The notes beneath the pieces are model-generated. The model was not told the DNA's origin, did no database searches, and was given only the letters and a program-made list of their open reading frames with translations. From a virus: a DNA stretch of 41,148 nucleotides. A program made the position numbers and the translations under genes. Shown here one piece after another: positions 1,516 to 15,851 of this stretch. The stretch's first letter is position 1. Each line of letters starts with the position of its first letter. Where the stretch lies: the UHGV virus genome UHGV-0181186; one strand, 5' to 3'.

Positions 1516-1764
1516 ATGGCAACTATCCGCGCAATTGTAAATTCTTATGGCTGCTACACTCTGGACGTTAAATTTGATATAGGCGGGACTGATGAGTGTT
1601 TCGAACTGGTGAAGACGGTCATTAAACAAGTTATCCCAGACTATAACCCTACTGATGACTTCTGGAAAGATGCAGTAAAAGAGGCGTTGAGCGATGAATA
1701 TCATTACCATTATTGGGGTGACTTGATTATCTCTCTGTACTACAGCAAACAAGGTTACAACTAA
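1516..1764 (+). CDS. hypothetical protein
   Basis: 82-aa ORF; same conserved RBS module cctaaactggagattcaaaaaATG; the antisense ORF 1489-1773 was rejected. Confidence 0.55.
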   Translation: MATIRAIVNSYGCYTLDVKFDIGGTDECFELVKTVIKQVIPDYNPTDDFWKDAVKEALSDEYHYHYWGDLIISLYYSKQGYN

Positions 1765-1802
1765 TCGACGCAACGGGGCTATTTAGCCCCAGATACCTTT
1801 AC

Positions 1803-1828
1803 AGCCCCTTTCTCATAGGGGCTTTTTT
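1803..1828 (+). terminator. intrinsic terminator
   Basis: agcccctttctcataggggct hairpin followed by TTTTTT; an additional hairpin ggggctatttagcccc lies just upstream. Confidence 0.65.
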
Positions 1829-1829
1829 A

Positions 1830-3400
1830 CGTCTCTGTAATAGCCTCTATACAACCCTTTCCCTTCCCTTTCCAGAATCTATCCCACTAATTCGATAGAA
1901 TCTATCCCGTACCTTAAAAGCAATAACTCTATAGTCTACTCTATAACCTCTTATCAAATCAACTTAAATAAAAGCCCATAACCCGAAAGGGAAGGGCAAC
2001 CATTTAAACGCTCTATAAAGCCCTATAACAGCCTTATCAACCTAACTTAAGGGATTGCATTAACCCACTCTAAAAAGCCCTTTATAGAGCTTCCCAGAGC
2101 CTTAGAAGAATCTTATAAGGGTGTAAGCTTTATCATCTCGTTAGTATTCTTGTGAACTACTAAAAAGGGCTTGGTAGTTCCTTTAAAGTATGTTATAGGG
2201 GCTATAAAGTTACTTTGAAGTAGCTTAAAAGTTACGTAAATGCTAGCCCCCTTAACATTTTCTTAACAATTTCTTAACAAACCCTACATAGTTATGCTTG
2301 TTAGAGACTTGTTAGCCCCTTGTTAAATCTCTGTTAAGACCACGTAAAAGCCTTGTAAGAGTCTTTAGCATAGCCTTTAAAGCCTCTGTAAAGCCCTATA
2401 AAGAGCTATCCATACAGTTGAGGGGTAGATACTAGGAAGAGACTTAAAAGAGCTTATAAAGAGCTATAGAGAGCTTTTAAGAGGTATGTTTAGAGAATCA
2501 CTAAGTAAGAGAGGGAACGATAAGGAAGAGTTAGTGACCATGTTAATAGCTTGTTAAAAAGATTAAACACTTGTTAGGAACTTGTTAATTATCCCTACAA
2601 AATAACTCTTTAAAATTAACTTGTTAGCTCTTGTTAGTCATCTGTTAAGATTCTGTAAAGTCTATGTATCAACTGTTAAGAAACTGTTACATCCTTGTTA
2701 GTTCTGTTAAGAATCTGTTAAGACCTTTGGAGAGATGTTAAGAGCTTGTGAGAACTGTTAAGAGATTGTTAAGGATATTTTAAAATTCTGCAAAGGGATG
2801 GTAAGGGAGTTGTTAAGGGTTACCAAGCAGATATACATCCTAATCAGATATTTTTGAGTTCCTTCAAAGACCCTAAAAAATGACTTGATAGTCCTATTTT
2901 ATAAAAATTTTAAAAATCTGAATAATTACCTAGACAGTCTTTTAAAAATACAGGTAGAAACAGGCTTATAAGATACCTTGTTAGTACCGTGTTAGACCTT
3001 GTGAGATAAGGTCTGTGAAGATATTCCTGTTAAGTTTGTTAAAACAGTCTATATAGAGGTTTAGTAATACCTAGTGAACACCTATAGAGGGTAACATAGC
3101 TTACCTAGAGATTAAGAGGTGTATAGAGGCTTCTAAGAGCGTATAGAGAGATGGTTAAGGTGATTGTATAGGTTGTTAAGAAGGCTTGTTAGAAGATTGT
3201 TTATAAGGCTTATTAAAGGGCTAGTTAGAAGGCTTATACAGGGGGCTATTAAGACCACTAGATAGTTACTAAGATACTATATAGTACTATATAACTATAT
3301 AGAGAGTAAGATTAAGGAGGTTGTTAAGAAGGATAGATATTTTGTTCACATATGCTGGTGACCCAGAGGTTGGGACAACCGATAAAATTTTATAAAAATT
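1830..3400. repeat. ORF-free iteron array (TGTTAAG-type and CTATAAAG/TATAGAG-type short repeats)
   Basis: No ORF in any frame across about 1.6 kb; dozens of copies of (C)TTGTTA(A/G)G and (C)TATA(A/G)AG at roughly 10-12 bp spacing; lies between convergent terminators. Confidence 0.7.
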
Positions 3401-3425
3401 AAAAAAGCCCCCAATTAAGGAGGCT
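3399..3425 (-). terminator. intrinsic terminator (minus strand)
   Basis: On the minus strand: gcctcc-ttaatt-gggggc hairpin followed by ttttttaattttt. Confidence 0.5.
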
Positions 3426-3437
3426 CTTAAGGTATTT

Positions 3438-3986
3438 TTAAATCAGTGTTTCCAGAACTGTTTTTAGTGATGACTTGGTTGTCTGATAAAAATGAGTAAA
3501 GCCGTTGTTGTTATCGAATATCTGCATCATGATATCATCTCCCTTGATTGGGTATACTCGGATATCATAGTGAAAACCATTAAAGACACAAGACCCATTA
3601 CAGAATGCACTAAAGTCATCCACTGAGATATACTCTTCATGTCCTGTGATTTTTATACAGATACCTTTACTCGGTCTCTTAGGATTAATATCTTCCATCA
3701 CAGACATATTCTGTCCACCAAGAGATACCATAGTGACCACTTTACGGTTCTTCTGTCTAAAGTACATCTTAACTTTCTGCAAAGTGTCTTCATAGAACGG
3801 ATAAGACCTAGCTACAAAGATTCCTTCAAGTGGCTCTTTACCATTTTCAACTTCTCTGGTATGTCGTACTGCAAAGATAATTTGTTGGAACCAGTTAAGA
3901 TTTTCTTCGGAGAGTGCTTCTCGAACATCACTCCAGTCAAGGACTAAGTAGTTACCTTCAACTTCTTTTAAGTTATCTTTTTCCAT
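3438..3986 (-). CDS. hypothetical protein
   Basis: ORF 3438-4061; the longest start overlaps the upstream gene by 62 nt, so the internal Met at 3986 was chosen as the likely start. Confidence 0.5.
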   Translation of the reverse strand: MEKDNLKEVEGNYLVLDWSDVREALSEENLNWFQQIIFAVRHTREVENGKEPLEGIFVARSYPFYEDTLQKVKMYFRQKNRKVVTMVSLGGQNMSVMEDINPKRPSKGICIKITGHEEYISVDDFSAFCNGSCVFNGFHYDIRVYPIKGDDIMMQIFDNNNGFTHFYQTTKSSLKTVLETLI

Positions 3987-3999
3987 ATCTATCACACCA

Positions 4000-4464
4000 T
4001 TATCGTAAAACTTGATATTCTGGTACTGCGAATTTATTACTATTGTTCTTGATGAGGTCATCCTCTGAAACTAAAAATGTAATACCACATAAGTGTCTGT
4101 AACGACTATCATACTCGAATATCTTAAACAGATATTTACCATCATGATAAACCTGTTGCACTTCACCTTCTGCAACAATCTCGCCTGTAATAAAATTTTT
4201 TAGTTTATACACATTACCAACTTTAGGTACTGTTTTCATCTCAGGCTCTTTTAGTGCTACACCTATTTTTGCATCACCGAGTAAATGAGAACTCTCAAAA
4301 GCTACGTGTTTCATATAAGCTTCTGAGCATTCCCAAATAAAACAATGTACAAGAACCTTAGCAGCATGTCTTGAGCAGTTCAACTTATCACAAATTTCTG
4401 TGTACATCTCATCTTTAGTAGAATTGTCAAGCATTGCTCTTTGCACTACTTCTTTAATTTTCAT
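4000..4464 (-). CDS. hypothetical protein
   Basis: 154-aa ORF in a tightly packed leftward gene block. Confidence 0.55.
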   Translation of the reverse strand: MKIKEVVQRAMLDNSTKDEMYTEICDKLNCSRHAAKVLVHCFIWECSEAYMKHVAFESSHLLGDAKIGVALKEPEMKTVPKVGNVYKLKNFITGEIVAEGEVQQVYHDGKYLFKIFEYDSRYRHLCGITFLVSEDDLIKNNSNKFAVPEYQVLR

Positions 4465-5229: not shown

Positions 5230-5733
5230 CTATAATTGTAGGTTGCATTCTTTACTTACCTCTTCAAGTTTAACCTCAGAGTCCTTAAGTCGTTTCTTAT
5301 GAACTCTGAATCTTATTAGTGAGATGATAATACCAGCTAAAGGAACAGTATACAAGTACCAGATATCATGTAGCTTTGCAGTAATCTGTGCAATGGTCAA
5401 ATCTTGAGCTATGGAACTGATTGCTGATACTGCCAGTAACATTGCTAAGAAGAAAGCCAGTATCATAACAATATTCAGACAACCTCTGGCATGGTATTCA
5501 TGCTTAATGCACTTACTCTTTTCGTCAACAACCCTGTTGTAGTCGTTTGTAAAGTCTCTGTAGAAAGCTTTCAAGTATTCTTTATTGTAGCCTTCAAAGC
5601 AACCTGTACCGTACCAATAATCACCACCAAAATGTGCTATGATACCAGTATCTCCATTTGGTTTGGTTACTCTTAAAGAAGTATGATGACGAGTATCCTG
5701 ATAATCTATCTTATATCTCTCTTCAAAAATCAT
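5230..5733 (-). CDS. hypothetical membrane protein
   Basis: ORF with two hydrophobic C-terminal segments (ILAFFLAMLLAVSAISSIA and VPLAGIIISLI); start placed at the Met giving ATGA overlap with the upstream gene. Confidence 0.5.
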   Translation of the reverse strand: MIFEERYKIDYQDTRHHTSLRVTKPNGDTGIIAHFGGDYWYGTGCFEGYNKEYLKAFYRDFTNDYNRVVDEKSKCIKHEYHARGCLNIVMILAFFLAMLLAVSAISSIAQDLTIAQITAKLHDIWYLYTVPLAGIIISLIRFRVHKKRLKDSEVKLEEVSKECNLQL

Positions 5734-5948
5734 TTTCCAACCCCTCTCAATCGTTTGTTCCATTCAAGGTCAACAAATCTTTGCAGGACTTTCCCTCTAG
5801 GTGTTACACCTTTTAAATCTGCATCGTAACAATGGTAAAAGTCACCTTCAGCATGTTTACCATAGCATTTTCTGATATTCTGGCTTCTGCGATACTGTTC
5901 TAACAAGGACAGTTTGTAGTAATCTTCAACTGTAGTTAGTTTTTTCAT
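5730..5948 (-). CDS. hypothetical protein
   Basis: 72-aa ORF, ATGA-type overlaps on both sides. Confidence 0.45.
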   Translation of the reverse strand: MKKLTTVEDYYKLSLLEQYRRSQNIRKCYGKHAEGDFYHCYDADLKGVTPRGKVLQRFVDLEWNKRLRGVGK

Positions 5949-6490
5949 TCTTTCACCATAGCATTTCTGAACTGACGTTGTGTTTCTCTTGTAATTTCGT
6001 TTGGAGTAAAACCTGCTTTCAGCATATCTCTGAAAAGAACTTCTAAATGGTTCCTCTCAATGATGTAAATGGCATTCTGAATAGCTGTTTTGCGCTCCTT
6101 CAGGTCACTACTAATCTCTTCGCACTTACTGGTAAGTTCTGTGTCAGTTTTCTTATAGACTGGCATAACATGTGCGTAGCAACCTTTATTAGTCTCCATG
6201 AAAAATTTAAAAGATTCTTCAGAGTCCTTTAGAGCAATCCCTATAAAGTTCTTGTAAGCACCTGTGAAAGATAAGGACTCAATCTCAGCAGTTGAGTATA
6301 CAGTTCCTGCACACAGCCTTGCAGAAGTACTAAATGTGTGGTTTGGTGTCATGTCAAAATCTAAGTTCTTCAGTGGCCTGAAATAAACAATACCGTTGTG
6401 TGAGATATGTGTTACAACAGCCTCAACACTCTTTGACGGATTCTGTTTAACGTACAAAATTATTTTATCTTTTTCTTTCACTGTAGCCAT
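5945..6490 (-). CDS. hypothetical protein
   Basis: 181-aa ORF. Confidence 0.55.
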   Translation of the reverse strand: MATVKEKDKIILYVKQNPSKSVEAVVTHISHNGIVYFRPLKNLDFDMTPNHTFSTSARLCAGTVYSTAEIESLSFTGAYKNFIGIALKDSEESFKFFMETNKGCYAHVMPVYKKTDTELTSKCEEISSDLKERKTAIQNAIYIIERNHLEVLFRDMLKAGFTPNEITRETQRQFRNAMVKE

Positions 6491-6562
6491 ATCTATTCTC
6501 CAGAAACTAAAAAGGGAACTACCTCTCGATAGCTCCCATCATAATTAATGTTGTATACTCAG

Positions 6563-7144
6563 TCAAGAGTATTTTTTAGGCAGTAATGCACTTCGCTTGT
6601 TACTCTCTTCACTCAGCAGTGCAATAAATTCATCACCTTTACCATTCCACGGACTAAATGTAGGGATATGTTCTCTGATAGCATCAATCACTGTTTTCAG
6701 GGCGTTATTTTTTAACCACCAATCAGACACTGCTGAGGCTACAATATAATAAGCACCATCATCTGTGAAGATTGGCTCAGAGATACATGGTGAAATCATA
6801 GTGGTGATGATAGAGCCGTTATTCATGTAGTATGTTCTTTTTTCAACCTTATCAAGAAGCTTATGAAGGTCTGCAAAGAGACTTACCACCTCTTTATGGT
6901 CAATATCTTTTTCAAGACTTGCTCTGTACTTTAATAGTGCAGCATCAACCTCTTTATCATTGAATTTGAAGTACTGGACTTCTTCATTCACACATACGCT
7001 GATATTGTTGGTGTTTATCGTCAATTTGCACAGTTTGACTGGAGAGTTGATGTTGGTCTGAAAAAGTGCTACACAGCCCTCTACATTCCCGAAATGCTTG
7101 ACTAATGTAACTTCTGGTTGGATATGCTCATGTTCTTCTGACAT
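6563..7144 (-). CDS. hypothetical protein
   Basis: 193-aa ORF. Confidence 0.55.
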   Translation of the reverse strand: MSEEHEHIQPEVTLVKHFGNVEGCVALFQTNINSPVKLCKLTINTNNISVCVNEEVQYFKFNDKEVDAALLKYRASLEKDIDHKEVVSLFADLHKLLDKVEKRTYYMNNGSIITTMISPCISEPIFTDDGAYYIVASAVSDWWLKNNALKTVIDAIREHIPTFSPWNGKGDEFIALLSEESNKRSALLPKKYS

Positions 7145-7488
7145 TACAGTTTCCTCATTAAATACTTTTTAAGTTGTGTGTTAGGTTTCTCAAAAACTTC
7201 TATAGAAGATATCTTGACAGACTCACCACGCATACCAGTATGTTTGAATATGTAGTACTCTAACATCCCTATATACTTTGCTGGTAAGTCATATTTTACA
7301 TACACCGTCACAGAATCTTCAAACTCAACAACCTTTGTACCATCTTTGTAGTTAAACTCTTTAGGATGGTTGTAGTTGTCTATGTCATACATTAAAAAGA
7401 GTCTTTTACGTTGTAAGTCAAGCTTATTTGTTAAAGACTCTTTAATATCTGAGAAGTTTTTGTACACTGTGACATGGAGCTTACTCAT
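7144..7488 (-). CDS. hypothetical protein
   Basis: 114-aa ORF. Confidence 0.55.
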   Translation of the reverse strand: MSKLHVTVYKNFSDIKESLTNKLDLQRKRLFLMYDIDNYNHPKEFNYKDGTKVVEFEDSVTVYVKYDLPAKYIGMLEYYIFKHTGMRGESVKISSIEVFEKPNTQLKKYLMRKL

Positions 7489-7774
7489 CGTTAAACTCTC
7501 TGACGAAGAAATAGTTGACTTTGTTATTACCTACCATAAGGTCAAAGCAGGTATTTTCAAAAGGTTTGTTGTAGGCATCGTATGAAATATATGGGTCAGC
7601 TACTTGCTTAGTGCTTAACTTCTTACTTGATGGATTTAAGAGGCCACCATACAGCTTCTTGATAGCCTCTTCTACAACAGACCAGATAATTTCGTCAGTA
7701 ATTTCTTCGTACAGGTCAAGTTCACGCTCCAGTGAGAAGTCACAAATAGGGAAAACAACCTGTACTTTACTCAT
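7481..7774 (-). CDS. hypothetical protein
   Basis: 97-aa ORF. Confidence 0.5.
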   Translation of the reverse strand: MSKVQVVFPICDFSLERELDLYEEITDEIIWSVVEEAIKKLYGGLLNPSSKKLSTKQVADPYISYDAYNKPFENTCFDLMVGNNKVNYFFVREFNDE

Positions 7775-8181
7775 TAACGAATAACCTGTGAGACTTGAAT
7801 TGCTTCAGTTACTGACAAGTCACCTACTTTCTCTTCTTTGATAAAAGTGAAGGTGAGTTCAACAGGTTCTTGCTCTTCTTGCTCTTCTTGCTCAACTGGA
7901 ACACCATTAAGCTCATCAAAGATTGATTGGGTTGTCCAGTCTTCTCCACCATCTGGATAGTGGATTACGTAGAGAGGGAACTCTGTGTTAAACCAACCAA
8001 ATACAGGGCAGCCATCTTCATCATCTCGCACCCGATGAAGGGTGCTTCCAGACCCTGTAAAACGAAGGAATAAATCTCCGTTGCACTTGAATATTACTGC
8101 GTCGGCAAAACCGATGTCTTCTCGACCATCATGACCAAATGTGTCAACCTTTACTTGAATATCTCTAACATCTTTATTCAT
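7774..8181 (-). CDS. hypothetical protein (acidic EQEEQEEQE tract)
   Basis: 135-aa ORF. Confidence 0.55.
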   Translation of the reverse strand: MNKDVRDIQVKVDTFGHDGREDIGFADAVIFKCNGDLFLRFTGSGSTLHRVRDDEDGCPVFGWFNTEFPLYVIHYPDGGEDWTTQSIFDELNGVPVEQEEQEEQEPVELTFTFIKEEKVGDLSVTEAIQVSQVIR

Positions 8182-13631: not shown

Positions 13632-13708
13632 CTCTGTTTAGCTCAGCTTGGTAGAGCGTTCCGTTTGGGGCGGTAAGGCCGGAGGTTCAAGTCCTCCAAC
13701 AGAGACCA
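13632..13708 (+). tRNA. tRNA-Pro (anticodon TGG)
   Basis: Hand-folded cloverleaf: 7-bp acceptor ctctgtt/aacagag, T-arm ggagg-ttcaagt-cctcc, anticodon loop tttgggg, CCA encoded. Confidence 0.75.
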
Positions 13709-13715
13709 AATTAAT

Positions 13716-13793
13716 GTTCCAGTAGACAAAATGGTAAAGTCACCACTCTTTCAAAGTGGATATCTGAGGGTTCAAATCCCTTCTGGAACGCCA
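13716..13793 (+). tRNA. tRNA-Glu (anticodon TTC)
   Basis: Acceptor gttccag/ctggaac, anticodon arm ccact-ctttcaa-agtgg, T-loop ttcaaat, CCA encoded. Confidence 0.75.
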
Positions 13794-13800
13794 GTTTTGA

Positions 13801-13872
13801 CAGAAGACCAATTACAGCAAACTTAATCTACTCATCTGAAAGTTAATCGGACAAAGAAGATATTTGGTCTGG
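13801..13872 (+). ncRNA. candidate structured RNA repeat element 1 (conserved CAGAAGACC…TTACAGCAA 5' end, GGTCTGG 3' end)
   Basis: 5' and 3' ends can pair (AGACCAA/TTGGTCT) enclosing an AT-rich variable loop; no T-arm; related copies at 13967, 14421 and 14508. Confidence 0.35.
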
Positions 13873-13883
13873 TCATTAAGAAT

Positions 13884-13960
13884 TGCGGGTATAGAGAAAG
13901 GGCGTCTCACATGTCTCATTAGCATGGTATCGGCAGGTTCGACTCCTGCACCCGCCTCCA
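13884..13960 (+). tRNA. tRNA with anticodon CAT (Met or Ile2/lysidine)
   Basis: Anticodon arm catgt-ctcatta-gcatg, T-arm gcagg-ttcgact-cctgc, CCA encoded; position 1:72 appears mismatched. Confidence 0.7.
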
Positions 13961-13966
13961 AATTTA

Positions 13967-14030
13967 CAGAAGACCGTTTACAGCAATATTTATTAAATTT
14001 TTAGCGGAAAAATTGAAAGATACGGTCTGG
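13967..14030 (+). ncRNA. candidate structured RNA repeat element 2
   Basis: cagaagaccgtttacagcaa … acggtctgg; terminal stem AGACCGT/ACGGTCT. Confidence 0.35.
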
Positions 14031-14043
14031 TAATACTAAACAT

Positions 14044-14120
14044 GGTTAGGAAGCACATAAGGTATGTGCGGTCGCCTGTTAAGCGAATGGCACAGGGTTC
14101 GAATCCCTGACTAACCGCCA
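14044..14120 (+). tRNA. tRNA-Asn (anticodon GTT)
   Basis: Acceptor ggttagg/actaacc, D-arm gcac…gtgc, anticodon loop ctgttaa, T-arm caggg-ttcgaat-ccctg, CCA encoded. Confidence 0.75.
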
Positions 14121-14189
14121 AATTTAGGAGAGAAGTGATTGCTCACCGATTTGTAAGGTGCAAGTCCTTAGCCTGAATAGAAATTAAAT

Positions 14190-14277
14190 GTGTCGTTATC
14201 CCGTAGATGGTAGCGGTGGGGACTGTAAATCCCTTGTCATTGAGACTCGGTAGGTTCGACTCCTACACGGCACACCA
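14190..14277 (+). tRNA. tRNA-Tyr (anticodon GTA), long variable arm
   Basis: 88 nt; acceptor gtgtcgt/acggcac, anticodon arm gggga-ctgtaaa-tccct, T-arm gtagg-ttcgact-cctac, CCA encoded. Confidence 0.7.
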
Positions 14278-14282
14278 ATAAA

Positions 14283-14359
14283 GGCTATGTAGTTTAACTG
14301 GAGAAAATACTCCCCTGTCACGGGAGATGATGTGAGTTCAAGTCTCATCGTAGCCGCCA
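14283..14359 (+). tRNA. tRNA-Asp (anticodon GTC)
   Basis: Acceptor ggctatg/cgtagcc, anticodon arm ctccc-ctgtcac-gggag, CCA encoded. Confidence 0.75.
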
Positions 14360-14384
14360 ATTTTGAGAGGGCTGTTTAGCCCAT

Positions 14385-14418
14385 CCCTTAAAGAGTTCTT
14401 ACGAGTATTCTTTAAGGG
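14385..14418 (+). other. 10-bp perfect-stem hairpin (possible terminator or RNA processing site)
   Basis: cccttaaaga…tctttaaggg inverted repeat; a second hairpin gggctgtttagccc lies immediately upstream. Confidence 0.45.
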
Positions 14419-14420
14419 AG

Positions 14421-14497
14421 CAGAAGACCAAATACAGCAAGAATGTATGAAATTTCAAGCCAATTTAATTTTGAAAATTTAAAACTTGGTCTGGCTC
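14421..14497 (+). ncRNA. candidate structured RNA repeat element 3
   Basis: cagaagaccaaatacagcaa … cttggtctgg. Confidence 0.35.
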
Positions 14498-14507
14498 AAC
14501 AAATTTA

Positions 14508-14639
14508 CAGAAGGCCGTTTACAGCAAAACTTAAACAATCTATTTCTCCGGTAAAGAAAAGGCGAAGGTTCGATTCCTTCACTCGGCAGATGTCGAGTTG
14601 GTGTAATGGTAGCACTTAAGATGATAAACAACGGTCTGG
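14508..14639 (+). ncRNA. candidate Y-RNA/YrlA-like RNA with circularly permuted tRNA-like module
   Basis: Order along the strand: conserved 5' motif, T-arm (gaagg-ttcgatt-ccttc), acceptor-like 7-bp hairpin capped by a tetraloop (actcggc-agat-gtcgagt), D-arm-like (gtg-taatggtag-cac), then a 3' strand (aacggtctgg) able to pair with the 5' motif. Confidence 0.4.
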
Positions 14640-14646
14640 TAATTAC

Positions 14647-14778
14647 CTTTGTAGATAAGTTATTAAGCTTACTTGTGAGTATGCGACCACAAAGGGTGAA
14701 TGGGTAAATTCTAGATTTAAACCCAAAAAGGCACATCGCTACAGACCTTAAGCAAGTCTGGGTAGCTTATCTACAAAG
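14647..14778 (+). other. long-range 13-bp perfect inverted repeat enclosing structured sequence
   Basis: ctttgtagataag (14647-14659) and cttatctacaaag (14766-14778) are exact reverse complements; interior contains hairpins cagac…gtctg and gggtaaat…atttaaaccc. Confidence 0.4.
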
Positions 14779-14788
14779 ATAATTTAAT

Positions 14789-14864
14789 GGAAGTGTAGCA
14801 GAATGGTGATGCGGCAGACTTTTAATCTGACAGGCGATGGGTTCGAATCCCTCCACTTCTACCA
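14789..14864 (+). tRNA. tRNA-Lys (anticodon TTT)
   Basis: Acceptor ggaagtg/cacttct, anticodon loop cttttaa, CCA encoded; paralog of the tRNA at 16377; T-stem weak. Confidence 0.65.
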
Positions 14865-14868
14865 ATAT

Positions 14869-14945
14869 GGTTCAGTCGCAGATAAGGTAATGCAAGGGTC
14901 TCATAAGCCCTATGAATGTGGGTTCGATTCCCATCTGAACCTCCA
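14869..14945 (+). tRNA. tRNA with anticodon CAT (second copy; Met or Ile2)
   Basis: Acceptor ggttcag/ctgaacc, anticodon arm agggt-ctcataa-gccct, CCA encoded. Confidence 0.7.
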
Positions 14946-14946
14946 A

Positions 14947-15022
14947 GCTGGTATAGTTAAGAAGGTTATAACACTCCCCTGATAAGGGAACATCGGTGGT
15001 TCGATTCCACCTACCAGTACCA
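14947..15022 (+). tRNA. tRNA-Ile (anticodon GAT)
   Basis: Acceptor gctggta/taccagt, anticodon loop ctgataa, T-arm ggtgg-ttcgatt-ccacc, CCA encoded. Confidence 0.7.
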
Positions 15023-15037
15023 ATTTCAATAAAGTTG

Positions 15038-15066
15038 TTGACATTGAGATGTGACTACTTTATAGT
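15038..15066 (+). promoter_or_regulatory. sigma70-type promoter (TTGACA-N17-TATAGT)
   Basis: aaagttgTTGACA…17 nt…TATAGT inside the tRNA array. Confidence 0.65.
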
Positions 15067-15270
15067 AACCTTAGTTTTCGTTGCGTAGCGTCTATTTTGC
15101 AAATTTAAAATAAATGCAAACGACAATGTTTTTCTGGCAGTAGCTTGATAGGCTAAACACCAGTGAGGTCTTCCAATCCCTCATCAAAGAATTTGGCGTA
15201 CTCGCCCACGGTATGATTAATAAGGTGGGCATCTTTAAGGGCTTTCTAAGAGAGTCTTTAAAGATAATTA

Positions 15271-15352
15271 CGGGGCGTATCTCAGCGGTCTTCTAAACCG
15301 CCGTTAACCGAGTAAGTGGAGTATGCGGGTTCGAGTCCTGCCGCCTCGACCA
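15271..15352 (+). tRNA. noncanonical tRNA-like gene, anticodon TCT (Arg) with no recognisable D-arm
   Basis: Acceptor cggggcg/cgcctcg plus ACCA, perfect anticodon arm gcggt-cttctaa-accgc, T-arm gcggg-ttcgagt-cctgc; only 7 nt between acceptor and anticodon stem, and a 23-nt variable region. Confidence 0.45.
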
Positions 15353-15366
15353 ATTTTGGAGAAATC

Positions 15367-15714
15367 ATGAAAACTTGTATTAGGTGCAAACTTAGCAAGG
15401 ATGAAAATGATTTCTACATGAAAGATGGTAGGAGAACTCATTCATACTGTAAAAAGTGTGTTAATGAGCAAACCATAGAAAGACAAAGAGCACTTAAACT
15501 CTTAGCTATTGAGTACAAAGGTGGGGTTTGTCATGATTGTGGTAAGAAGTATCATCCAGCAGTGTATGACTTCCATCATTTGAATCCTTCAGATAAAGAT
15601 TTTAACATTGGTCATAGGAAAAGCCTTAAGTTCTCTCAAGAACTAAAAGATGAACTTGACAAATGTGTTTTGCTATGTTCAAATTGCCATAGGGTAAGAC
15701 ATGCAAAATATTAG
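15367..15714 (+). CDS. HNH endonuclease (homing-endonuclease-like)
   Basis: CxxC…CxxC zinc-binding pairs (CIRCKL, CKKC, CHDCGK, CSNCH) and HH…N…H HNH motif; GGAG RBS; the ORF-track 5' extension overlaps a tRNA and was trimmed. Confidence 0.8.
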   Translation: MKTCIRCKLSKDENDFYMKDGRRTHSYCKKCVNEQTIERQRALKLLAIEYKGGVCHDCGKKYHPAVYDFHHLNPSDKDFNIGHRKSLKFSQELKDELDKCVLLCSNCHRVRHAKY

Positions 15715-15851
15715 TTAGCAGATTACTTAGACGACCTTAGCGGGTCTTCCTGTAGGGAGGTGGTCTGTATCTCATGTTTTCCAGAACATGTAAATAATCT
15801 GAGAAGGGGCTTTACAGTGTTGAGATAATACGGTAAGCTTCGAATTATAGT

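Follow-up and report, generated by a model that had tools for sequence, protein, structure and literature searches.

Direct terminal repeats (DTRs) are known from several Felix O1-like phages. Short terminal repeats were already inferred in the genome paper of Felix O1 (Whichard 2010), and the large terminases of UAB_Phi87 and Felix O1 are assigned to the DTR-type clade (Bardina 2016, PMC4837284). The genome ends of UAB_Phi87 were mapped by Bal31 digestion and run-off (Sanger) sequencing, which gave a DTR of 608 bp (Bardina et al. 2016, PMC4837284). Repeats of 581 bp are reported for Pr103Blw (PMC8303462), and the termini of I14.1 (PP892526) and E9 (PP886229) were set by PhageTerm (PMC11737134). 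Described here is the corresponding region of the virus genome UHGV-0181186, a 41,148-nucleotide stretch of DNA that is called the window throughout and to which all coordinates refer. The region is a gene-free gap of about 1.6 kb and carries two families of short repeats, one of them the phased heptamer TGTTAAG. For this genus, the position and length of the DTR are on record in the literature, so that the core identity of the feature is known. The published reports on Felix O1-like phages give the length and sequence of the repeat and, as far as literature searches reached, no phased arrays or conserved flanks. The phased TGTTAAG array, the inverted motif at the boundaries, and the conservation into Kolesnikvirus were not found described in the literature searched. 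Felix O1-like phages are widely used in typing, biocontrol, and therapy of Salmonella and E. coli.

The terminase recognition sites of lambda (cosB) and SPP1 (pac) consist of several binding sites for the small subunit together with bent DNA. The parC centromere of plasmid R1 is built from 11-bp direct repeats, as are iteron origins. In T7, CCTAAAG occurs 11 times within the first 420 bp at the left genome end, both inside the 160-bp terminal repeat and next to it, at a spacing of 13 bp; these are reportedly the arrays described as SRL and SRR by Dunn and Studier 1983.

Genome ends within the gap

The window is, as judged by sequence, that of a Felixounavirus (a Felix O1-like myovirus of the Ounavirinae). 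The stretch 1830–3400 matches 257 phage records at 77–92% identity, and nearly all of these are Felixounavirus, Mooglevirus, or Suspvirus. The equivalent 1.6-kb gap lies between ORF23 and ORF24 in Felix O1 and between genes 27 and 28 in wV8; Moogle, Sf13, and SUSP1 feature a gap of 1.6–1.7 kb at the same place. Several of the relatives' records begin or end inside it.

A preliminary description of this DNA had listed a packaging site among several possible functions and proposed a comparison with genome termini, which was made through the mapped ends of relatives. The records of I14.1 and E9 carry an identical sequence at both ends—581 and 580 bp, respectively—that aligns to 2246–2824. H12 (PP952733) and ZX4221 (OR498728) start at the equivalent of 2246, and EcSzw_1 (MH791413) ends at about 2823. 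The DTR of UAB_Phi87 reads AACATTTTCTTAACAA...GTTAAGGGCTACCAA and corresponds to about 2254–2826 of the window; its homologue spans 614 bp compared with the reported 608 bp. This sequence was taken from the supplement of the paper because the GenBank record is not opened at the physical ends. In total, the first or last position of at least five independent records falls on one of the two boundaries, and such sharp, conserved boundaries correspond to sequence-specific cleavage and not to headful ends. Across the repeat, the DTRs of UAB_Phi87, Pr103Blw, I14.1, and E9 are homologous to the region at 85–93% identity. They have the boundaries and internal repeats in common with it and are flanked by the same convergent gene blocks, and there is no essential difference, the ends in the window being placed by homology.

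The gap is almost certainly the DTR and genome-end region of this phage, that is, the concatemer junction, as predicted from the ends of its relatives. The packaging option of the preliminary description is borne out to the extent that the region contains the DTR and both cleavage boundaries of the phage group. The predicted DTR occupies 2246–2824 (579 bp, + strand) with boundaries accurate to about ±8 bp. The predicted layout of the gap is a terminator, approximately 420 bp of unique noncoding DNA of the right end, the DTR of approximately 579 bp, approximately 570 bp of unique noncoding DNA of the left end, and a second terminator. In total, the noncoding DNA measures about 480 bp on the right-end side of the DTR and about 610 bp on the left-end side. 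The DTR would be single in the assembled or concatemeric form and present at both ends of the linear virion DNA, the two copies having presumably been collapsed by the assembly. Genome records of this group should open at the position equivalent to 2246, and engineering should avoid the gap.

The boundaries themselves are nearly invariant in 11 genomes of three genera. The left one is formed by GTTACGTAAATGCTA outside and GCCCCCTTAACA inside the DTR, and the right one by TGTTAAGGGCTACC inside and AAGCAGATATACA outside. Read inward from the physical ends, the left end starts with GCCCCCTTAACA and the right end with GGTAACCCTTAACA. Both cleavage sites carry CCCTTAACA, in inverted orientation.

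Borders and coding content of the gap

The gap extends from 1765 to 3437 in a window that is AT-rich as a whole (approximately 38% GC). The rightward block of small genes stops at 1764, and the first gene of the leftward block stops at 3438. Between these two stops there are just three open reading frames (ORFs) of 33–41 amino acids; all of them have GTG or TTG starts and lie where conservation is lowest. Across the six frames, no stop-free run exceeds 49 codons, compared with a longest run of 80 ± 16 codons in shuffled sequences, of which 0.1% are as short. No frame stays open because TAA and TAG occur inside the repeat words. The rightward block, whose last gene is 1516–1764, ends in an intrinsic terminator at 1803–1828 (+ strand), identified by a terminator scan as a stem at 1803–1823 followed by a T-run. 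The leftward block, whose first gene is 3438–4061 on the − strand, ends in an intrinsic terminator at 3403–3428 (− strand), with a hairpin at 3428–3403 and then a T-run. Both terminators point inward, toward each other. Absence of a credible ORF and convergent terminators at both edges had been the starting observations on this region, and both were confirmed.

In the relatives, the gap is mostly left empty in the annotation and is otherwise labeled as a repeat region or filled with tiny hypothetical ORFs. GenBank records such as PP886229, PV659053, and JN225449 carry "hypothetical proteins" of 25–50 amino acids inside the homologous gap. These are very likely false gene calls, as judged by their sequence, because they are not conserved between relatives and lie in repeat DNA.

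A gene-free stretch with conserved sequence could encode a long noncoding RNA or small RNAs, an outcome that the preliminary description had named as one that would speak against a repeat array. Such a product finds no support in Rfam, promoters, or RNA folding. An Rfam scan of 1600–3600 at permissive thresholds gave a best E-value of 0.16. Promoter-like sites of the sigma-70 type number 9 compared with 6.3 ± 2.9 expected, and none exceeds 9 of 12 matches. The DTR is not structured as RNA, with folding z-scores of −1.0 and −1.7 on the two strands, and the inward orientation of the terminators on both sides is likewise unfavorable for a transcript. The conservation follows the 11-bp pattern of the DNA motifs instead. 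An RNA product is, hence, extremely improbable.

Repeat words and their phasing

The first repeat family, TGTTA[AG] (TGTTAR), occurs 29 times in the gap, 26 times on the + strand and three times on the − strand, compared with 2.9 copies predicted from the rest of the window (Poisson P = 2e-19). Its extended consensus is CTTGTTAAGA. The second family, TATA[AG]AG (TATARAG), occurs 16 times—11 times on the + strand and five times on the − strand—compared with 0.76 expected (P = 3e-16). The enrichment of two short-repeat families, as first described, is therefore borne out by these counts. Most neighboring copies are separated by 9–11, 20–22, or 31 bp. Over long range, a period of 10.4 bp fits best, and its strength was reached by none of 2000 random placements within 2246–2824 and by one of 2000 over the whole gap. 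This period is the helical repeat of B-DNA and agrees with the earlier remark that many copies are spaced by about one helical turn. The helical periodicity of TA and TTAA (10–11 bp) in the gap is the strongest in the 41-kb window.

The repeats are organized around the predicted DTR, which contains 22 of the 29 TGTTAR copies. The first 35 bp of the DTR feature three inverted copies of TGTTAAG (CTTAACA on the + strand) at 2251–2280, 11 bp apart, as identified by motif map and alignment; inverted copies had been noted near 2255–2280 beforehand. This triplet is conserved in Felixounavirus and Mooglevirus, and two exact copies are kept in Sf13 and SUSP1. It is followed at 2299–2338 (+ strand) by four TGTTAR copies at an exact spacing of 11 bp, of which whole 11-bp units are gained or lost in relatives. 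The main array, at 2541–2819 (+ strand) in the motif map, consists of 15 TGTTAR copies and one TGTAAAG with a spacing of 9–11, 20–22, or 39–44 bp and stops 5 bp short of the right DTR boundary. The TATARAG family is mirror symmetric about the DTR: CTCTATA occurs on the right-end flank (1845–2080) and its complement TATAGAG on the left-end flank (3052–3298). Of the array as originally pictured, density and phase hold, whereas it is not one uniform array but a set of repeats arranged around a terminal repeat of approximately 580 bp.

The genome ends of T7, the nearest analogue that was compared directly, are similarly arranged. Both phages have DTRs and noncoding ends, and in both a heptamer recurs head-to-tail in and beside the terminal repeat, its copies separated by short spacers of variable length. 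The systems also differ, beginning with the word itself. CCTAAAG recurs at 13 bp, which is not a helical phase, in contrast to 10.4–11 bp for TGTTAAG; most copies lie outside the repeat in T7 and inside it here; and the T7 ends carry promoters, whereas none stand out in the gap. There is no sequence homology between the two regions, and the resemblance is an analogy only.

Conservation of the repeats

The noncoding DNA of the gap is 77–79% identical to that of Moogle, Sf13, or SUSP1, compared with 47–56% identity at the amino acid level for the adjacent protein of 207 residues. In the distant set of relatives, conservation amounts to 0.84 at motif positions versus 0.74 in the rest and the spacers, and a sawtooth of cores and spacers is visible in the conservation. 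Longer insertions and deletions between relatives cluster at 11 and 22–24 bp; the phase is preserved because they often add or remove whole 11- or 22-bp units. In six of seven genomes from three genera, 10.4 bp is the best period.

Erwinia phages of Kolesnikvirus can be aligned over approximately 100 bp only, at the right DTR boundary, and retain an ORF-free gap of 1.47 kb between convergent blocks. In this gap of Erwinia phage Rouille, 12 copies of TGTTAAGA are preceded by inverted copies of TTAACA, and a different second word, CTTCTAAG, takes the place of TATARAG. The heptamer TGTTAAG, phased on one DNA face, is thereby found conserved across four genera. Persistence of a word amid sequence that has otherwise turned over is the mark to be expected of a protein-binding site. 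Ordinary genes at this place in related phages, which would have spoken against the array, were looked for, and four genera keep the gap gene-free.

The same phasing could act without any dedicated protein. Phased TA and TTAA steps would make the terminal DNA curved or anisotropically flexible and, for example, help the end packaged last to fit into the portal or tail or aid the pairing of ends in concatemer formation. Both the exceptional TA/TTAA periodicity and the coincidence of the 10.4-bp phase with the helical repeat fit this idea. However, curvature alone requires neither one specific word nor one orientation, and Kolesnikvirus retains TGTTAAG(A) exactly despite the turnover around it. 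The better conservation of core positions compared with spacers likewise argues against curvature as the sole function, which we consider rather unlikely.

A probable role in end recognition and packaging

Taken together, the region probably represents the end-recognition and packaging scaffold of the DTR genome ends. For the repeats by themselves, the chance of such a scaffold role is about even. The head-to-tail TGTTAAG copies would be binding sites for a small DNA-binding protein of the phage—the most plausible candidate being the partner that gives the large terminase its packaging specificity—that covers a single face of the DNA along the repeat. Such a protein–DNA complex would position the nuclease of the large terminase at the two boundaries with the inverted CCCTTAACA. 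Cuts or nicks on opposite strands approximately 580 bp apart, followed by strand-displacement synthesis, would then provide each packaged genome with its own repeat. Staggered cuts combined with strand-displacement synthesis constitute the classical model for T7. The second motif (CTCTATA/TATAGAG), mirrored about the DTR, could serve the same complex.

A more specific version can be offered only tentatively and is the less likely one. Here, the TGTTAAG array would be the loading platform for an unrecognized packaging-specificity protein of the Ounavirinae, which functionally replaces the missing small terminase. The protein would polymerize along one face of approximately 0.6–1.5 kb of DNA and direct two mirror-image nicks at the inverted CCCTTAACA sites approximately 580 bp apart. 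The platform might double as a replication start. If true, the nicking by such a protein would provide a concrete mechanism for the duplication of terminal repeats in a myovirus. As neither a small terminase nor a packaging signal or origin has been assigned in this group, the array is of use as a defined DNA bait for the end-recognition protein.

The arrangement resembles cosB and pac by its repeated short sites beside a cleavage position and by DNA phased on one face. It differs from them by the absence of a recognizable small terminase, by the absence of an IHF consensus site in the region, and by approximately 30 sites over 1.5 kb instead of three to four. The large terminase of the window is encoded at 19,634–21,250 (phrog_979, E = 1e-233). 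No small terminase is recognizable among the ORFs upstream of it in searches of PHROGs, Pfam, and PDB sequences.

Several points weigh against the scaffold or against its present form. The termini of this phage are themselves placed by homology to the ends of relatives. Recognition of the boundaries does not account for all repeats, because seven of the TGTTAR copies and the majority of the TATARAG copies are found beyond the DTR. The phase in Kolesnikvirus is 11.4 bp and only weakly significant. To our knowledge, the function of the T7 arrays was never settled, and the analogy does not prove a role in packaging. A binder was not found: In searches of PHROGs, Pfam, and PDB sequences, the seven genes that border the gap and the three ORFs preceding the large terminase matched only families of unknown function. 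The earlier idea of an array bound on one DNA face fits the 10.4-bp phase, and no binding protein has been found for it. The ORF directly upstream of the large terminase (66 amino acids, 19,427–19,627; phrog_4397, unknown function) is acidic and shows no signature of DNA binding. Annotations of the group include no small terminase, and the Felix O1 paper reports none (Whichard 2010). Finally, phased repeats with an AT-rich block (23% GC) beside them are also what a replication origin looks like, although this combination is required of an origin without being diagnostic of it. The curated record of Bas63 opens the genome at the 66-amino-acid ORF in front of the terminase, labeled as hypothetical.

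The AT-rich block, at 2848–2947, is the second-lowest 100-bp GC window in 41 kb and lies in the unique flank just inside the left-end copy of the DTR. Together with direct repeats phased on one DNA face, it is what would be expected if the array were, or were also, a replication origin at the genome ends, with iterons bound by an initiator beside an unwinding element. The head-to-tail short repeats about one helical turn apart and the nearby AT-rich block are shared with iteron origins and with parC. No origin has been mapped in this phage group, and the Felix O1 paper names none, which leaves room for one here. In contrast to those systems, no cognate initiator or partition gene is found nearby, and the array coincides with mapped genome ends. 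There is no DnaA box in 1765–3437 when up to one mismatch is allowed, and the neighboring proteins belong to families of unknown function without a Rep-like or helix-turn-helix domain. The strongest conserved blocks are the two cleavage boundaries and not the AT-rich stretch, and the GC skew over the window tracks only the direction of transcription. An origin, one of the options first put forward, thus has no positive support from DnaA boxes or an adjacent initiator gene and is unlikely; such a role could coexist with one in packaging.

A T5-like injection-stop signal and a centromere-like partition site had been listed as further options. They share with the region a general look—many short and inverted repeats in noncoding DNA near an end—and the 11-bp direct repeats of parC count in favor of a centromere. 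However, the terminal repeat measures 0.58 kb and contains no genes, hence no first-step-transfer gene set as in the corresponding segment of T5. No ParA/ParM-like or ParB/ParR-like genes flank the region, and the phage group is described as virulent, in contrast to the low-copy episomal lifestyle of an element in need of partition. Both functions are highly improbable. The scaffold at the genome ends remains the preferred reading of the region.

Elements of the flanks

The right-end unique flank occupies 1829–2245, just inside the right-end copy of the DTR in virion DNA, as delineated by motif map, conservation profile, and alignment. CTCTATA, the reverse complement of TATAGAG, occurs in it at 1845, 1927, 1939, 2011, and 2080. 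A pyrimidine tract at 1856–1873 and a pair of AGAATCTATCCC at 1875–1886 and 1899–1910 are present as first described for 1860–1910. They lie in the stretch 1845–1924, which has an identity of 0.31–0.61 in distant relatives. As no other part of the region is less conserved, tract and pair are probably not functional. A small hairpin, AACCCGAAAGGG, is located at about 1980–1993 (within 1973–2000) and conserved in three genera; E9 has CCCCCAGAAAGGGG, by which the pairing is preserved.

The left cleavage site is adjoined at 2220–2245 (+ strand) by the element AAAGTTACGTAAATGCTA, nearly invariant in the alignment of 11 genomes from three genera. In relatives, it is preceded by one to three units similar to GTTACGTAAA. 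Outside the DTR, at a distance of 40 bp, the left-boundary sequence recurs in inverted orientation (ATGTTATAGGGGCTA at 2190–2204 versus TAGCCCCCTTAACAT at 2244–2258). The record of BPS15Q2 ends at the equivalent of 2201 and restarts at 2232, omitting approximately 30 bp; this may be an assembly artifact or an alternative cut.

The right cleavage site is adjoined at 2825–2847 (+ strand) by AAGCAGATATACA, which is nearly invariant in the alignment as well. Beyond the AT-rich block, the rest of the left-end unique flank extends over 2948–3398 (+ strand), as judged by motif map, conservation profile, and alignment. It features TGTTAR at 2979, 2990, 3028, 3037, 3174, 3187, and 3322 and TATAGAG at 3052, 3083, 3122, 3142, and 3298. 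In addition, it contains a poorly conserved array with a period of 12 bp at 3173–3235.

Phased arrays in other phages and further features of the window

IMG/VR was scanned for three exact TGTTAAG copies at a spacing of 11 bp. This yielded 72 loci, of which 54 lie outside the Ounavirinae. For three control heptamers matched to it in composition, the counts were 15, 58, and 13 loci. With control heptamers also forming 11-bp arrays, the TGTTAAG array was ruled out as an exceptional, widespread signal; helically phased arrays of heptamers seem to occur in phage genomes generally, whatever the word.

One unrelated lineage (L089, IMGVR_UViG_3300021399_000107, 165 kb) features an ORF-free stretch of 2.3 kb at 5732–8037 with 27 GTTAAG copies in 500 bp. 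The best period of this array is 10.4 bp, and a cluster of inverted copies precedes it. On the related contigs L030 and L068, the array lies directly upstream of a gene for a sigma factor-like protein (phrog_5767) and a phrog_3314 gene, which are followed in L068 by terminase-like and portal genes. The sigma-like protein of this lineage has no homologue in the Ounavirinae.

The window also carries 25 tRNA genes at 13,632–19,204, in several clusters on the + strand that are interleaved with small ORFs, which is typical of Felix O1-like phages. An ORF similar to HNH homing endonucleases lies among these clusters at 15,316–15,714. Upstream of the gap, a repeated intergenic cassette occurs at 219–240, 1102–1172, and 1432–1515, where it precedes consecutive small rightward genes. 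A 56-nucleotide unit with a GGGGAGGG..CCTTCCCC hairpin, the copies being 89% identical, is followed in it by TCCTAAACTGGAGATTCAAAAA just before the ATG. The cassette probably corresponds to the intergenic direct repeats of the Felix O1 paper and to DR_6 in wV8.

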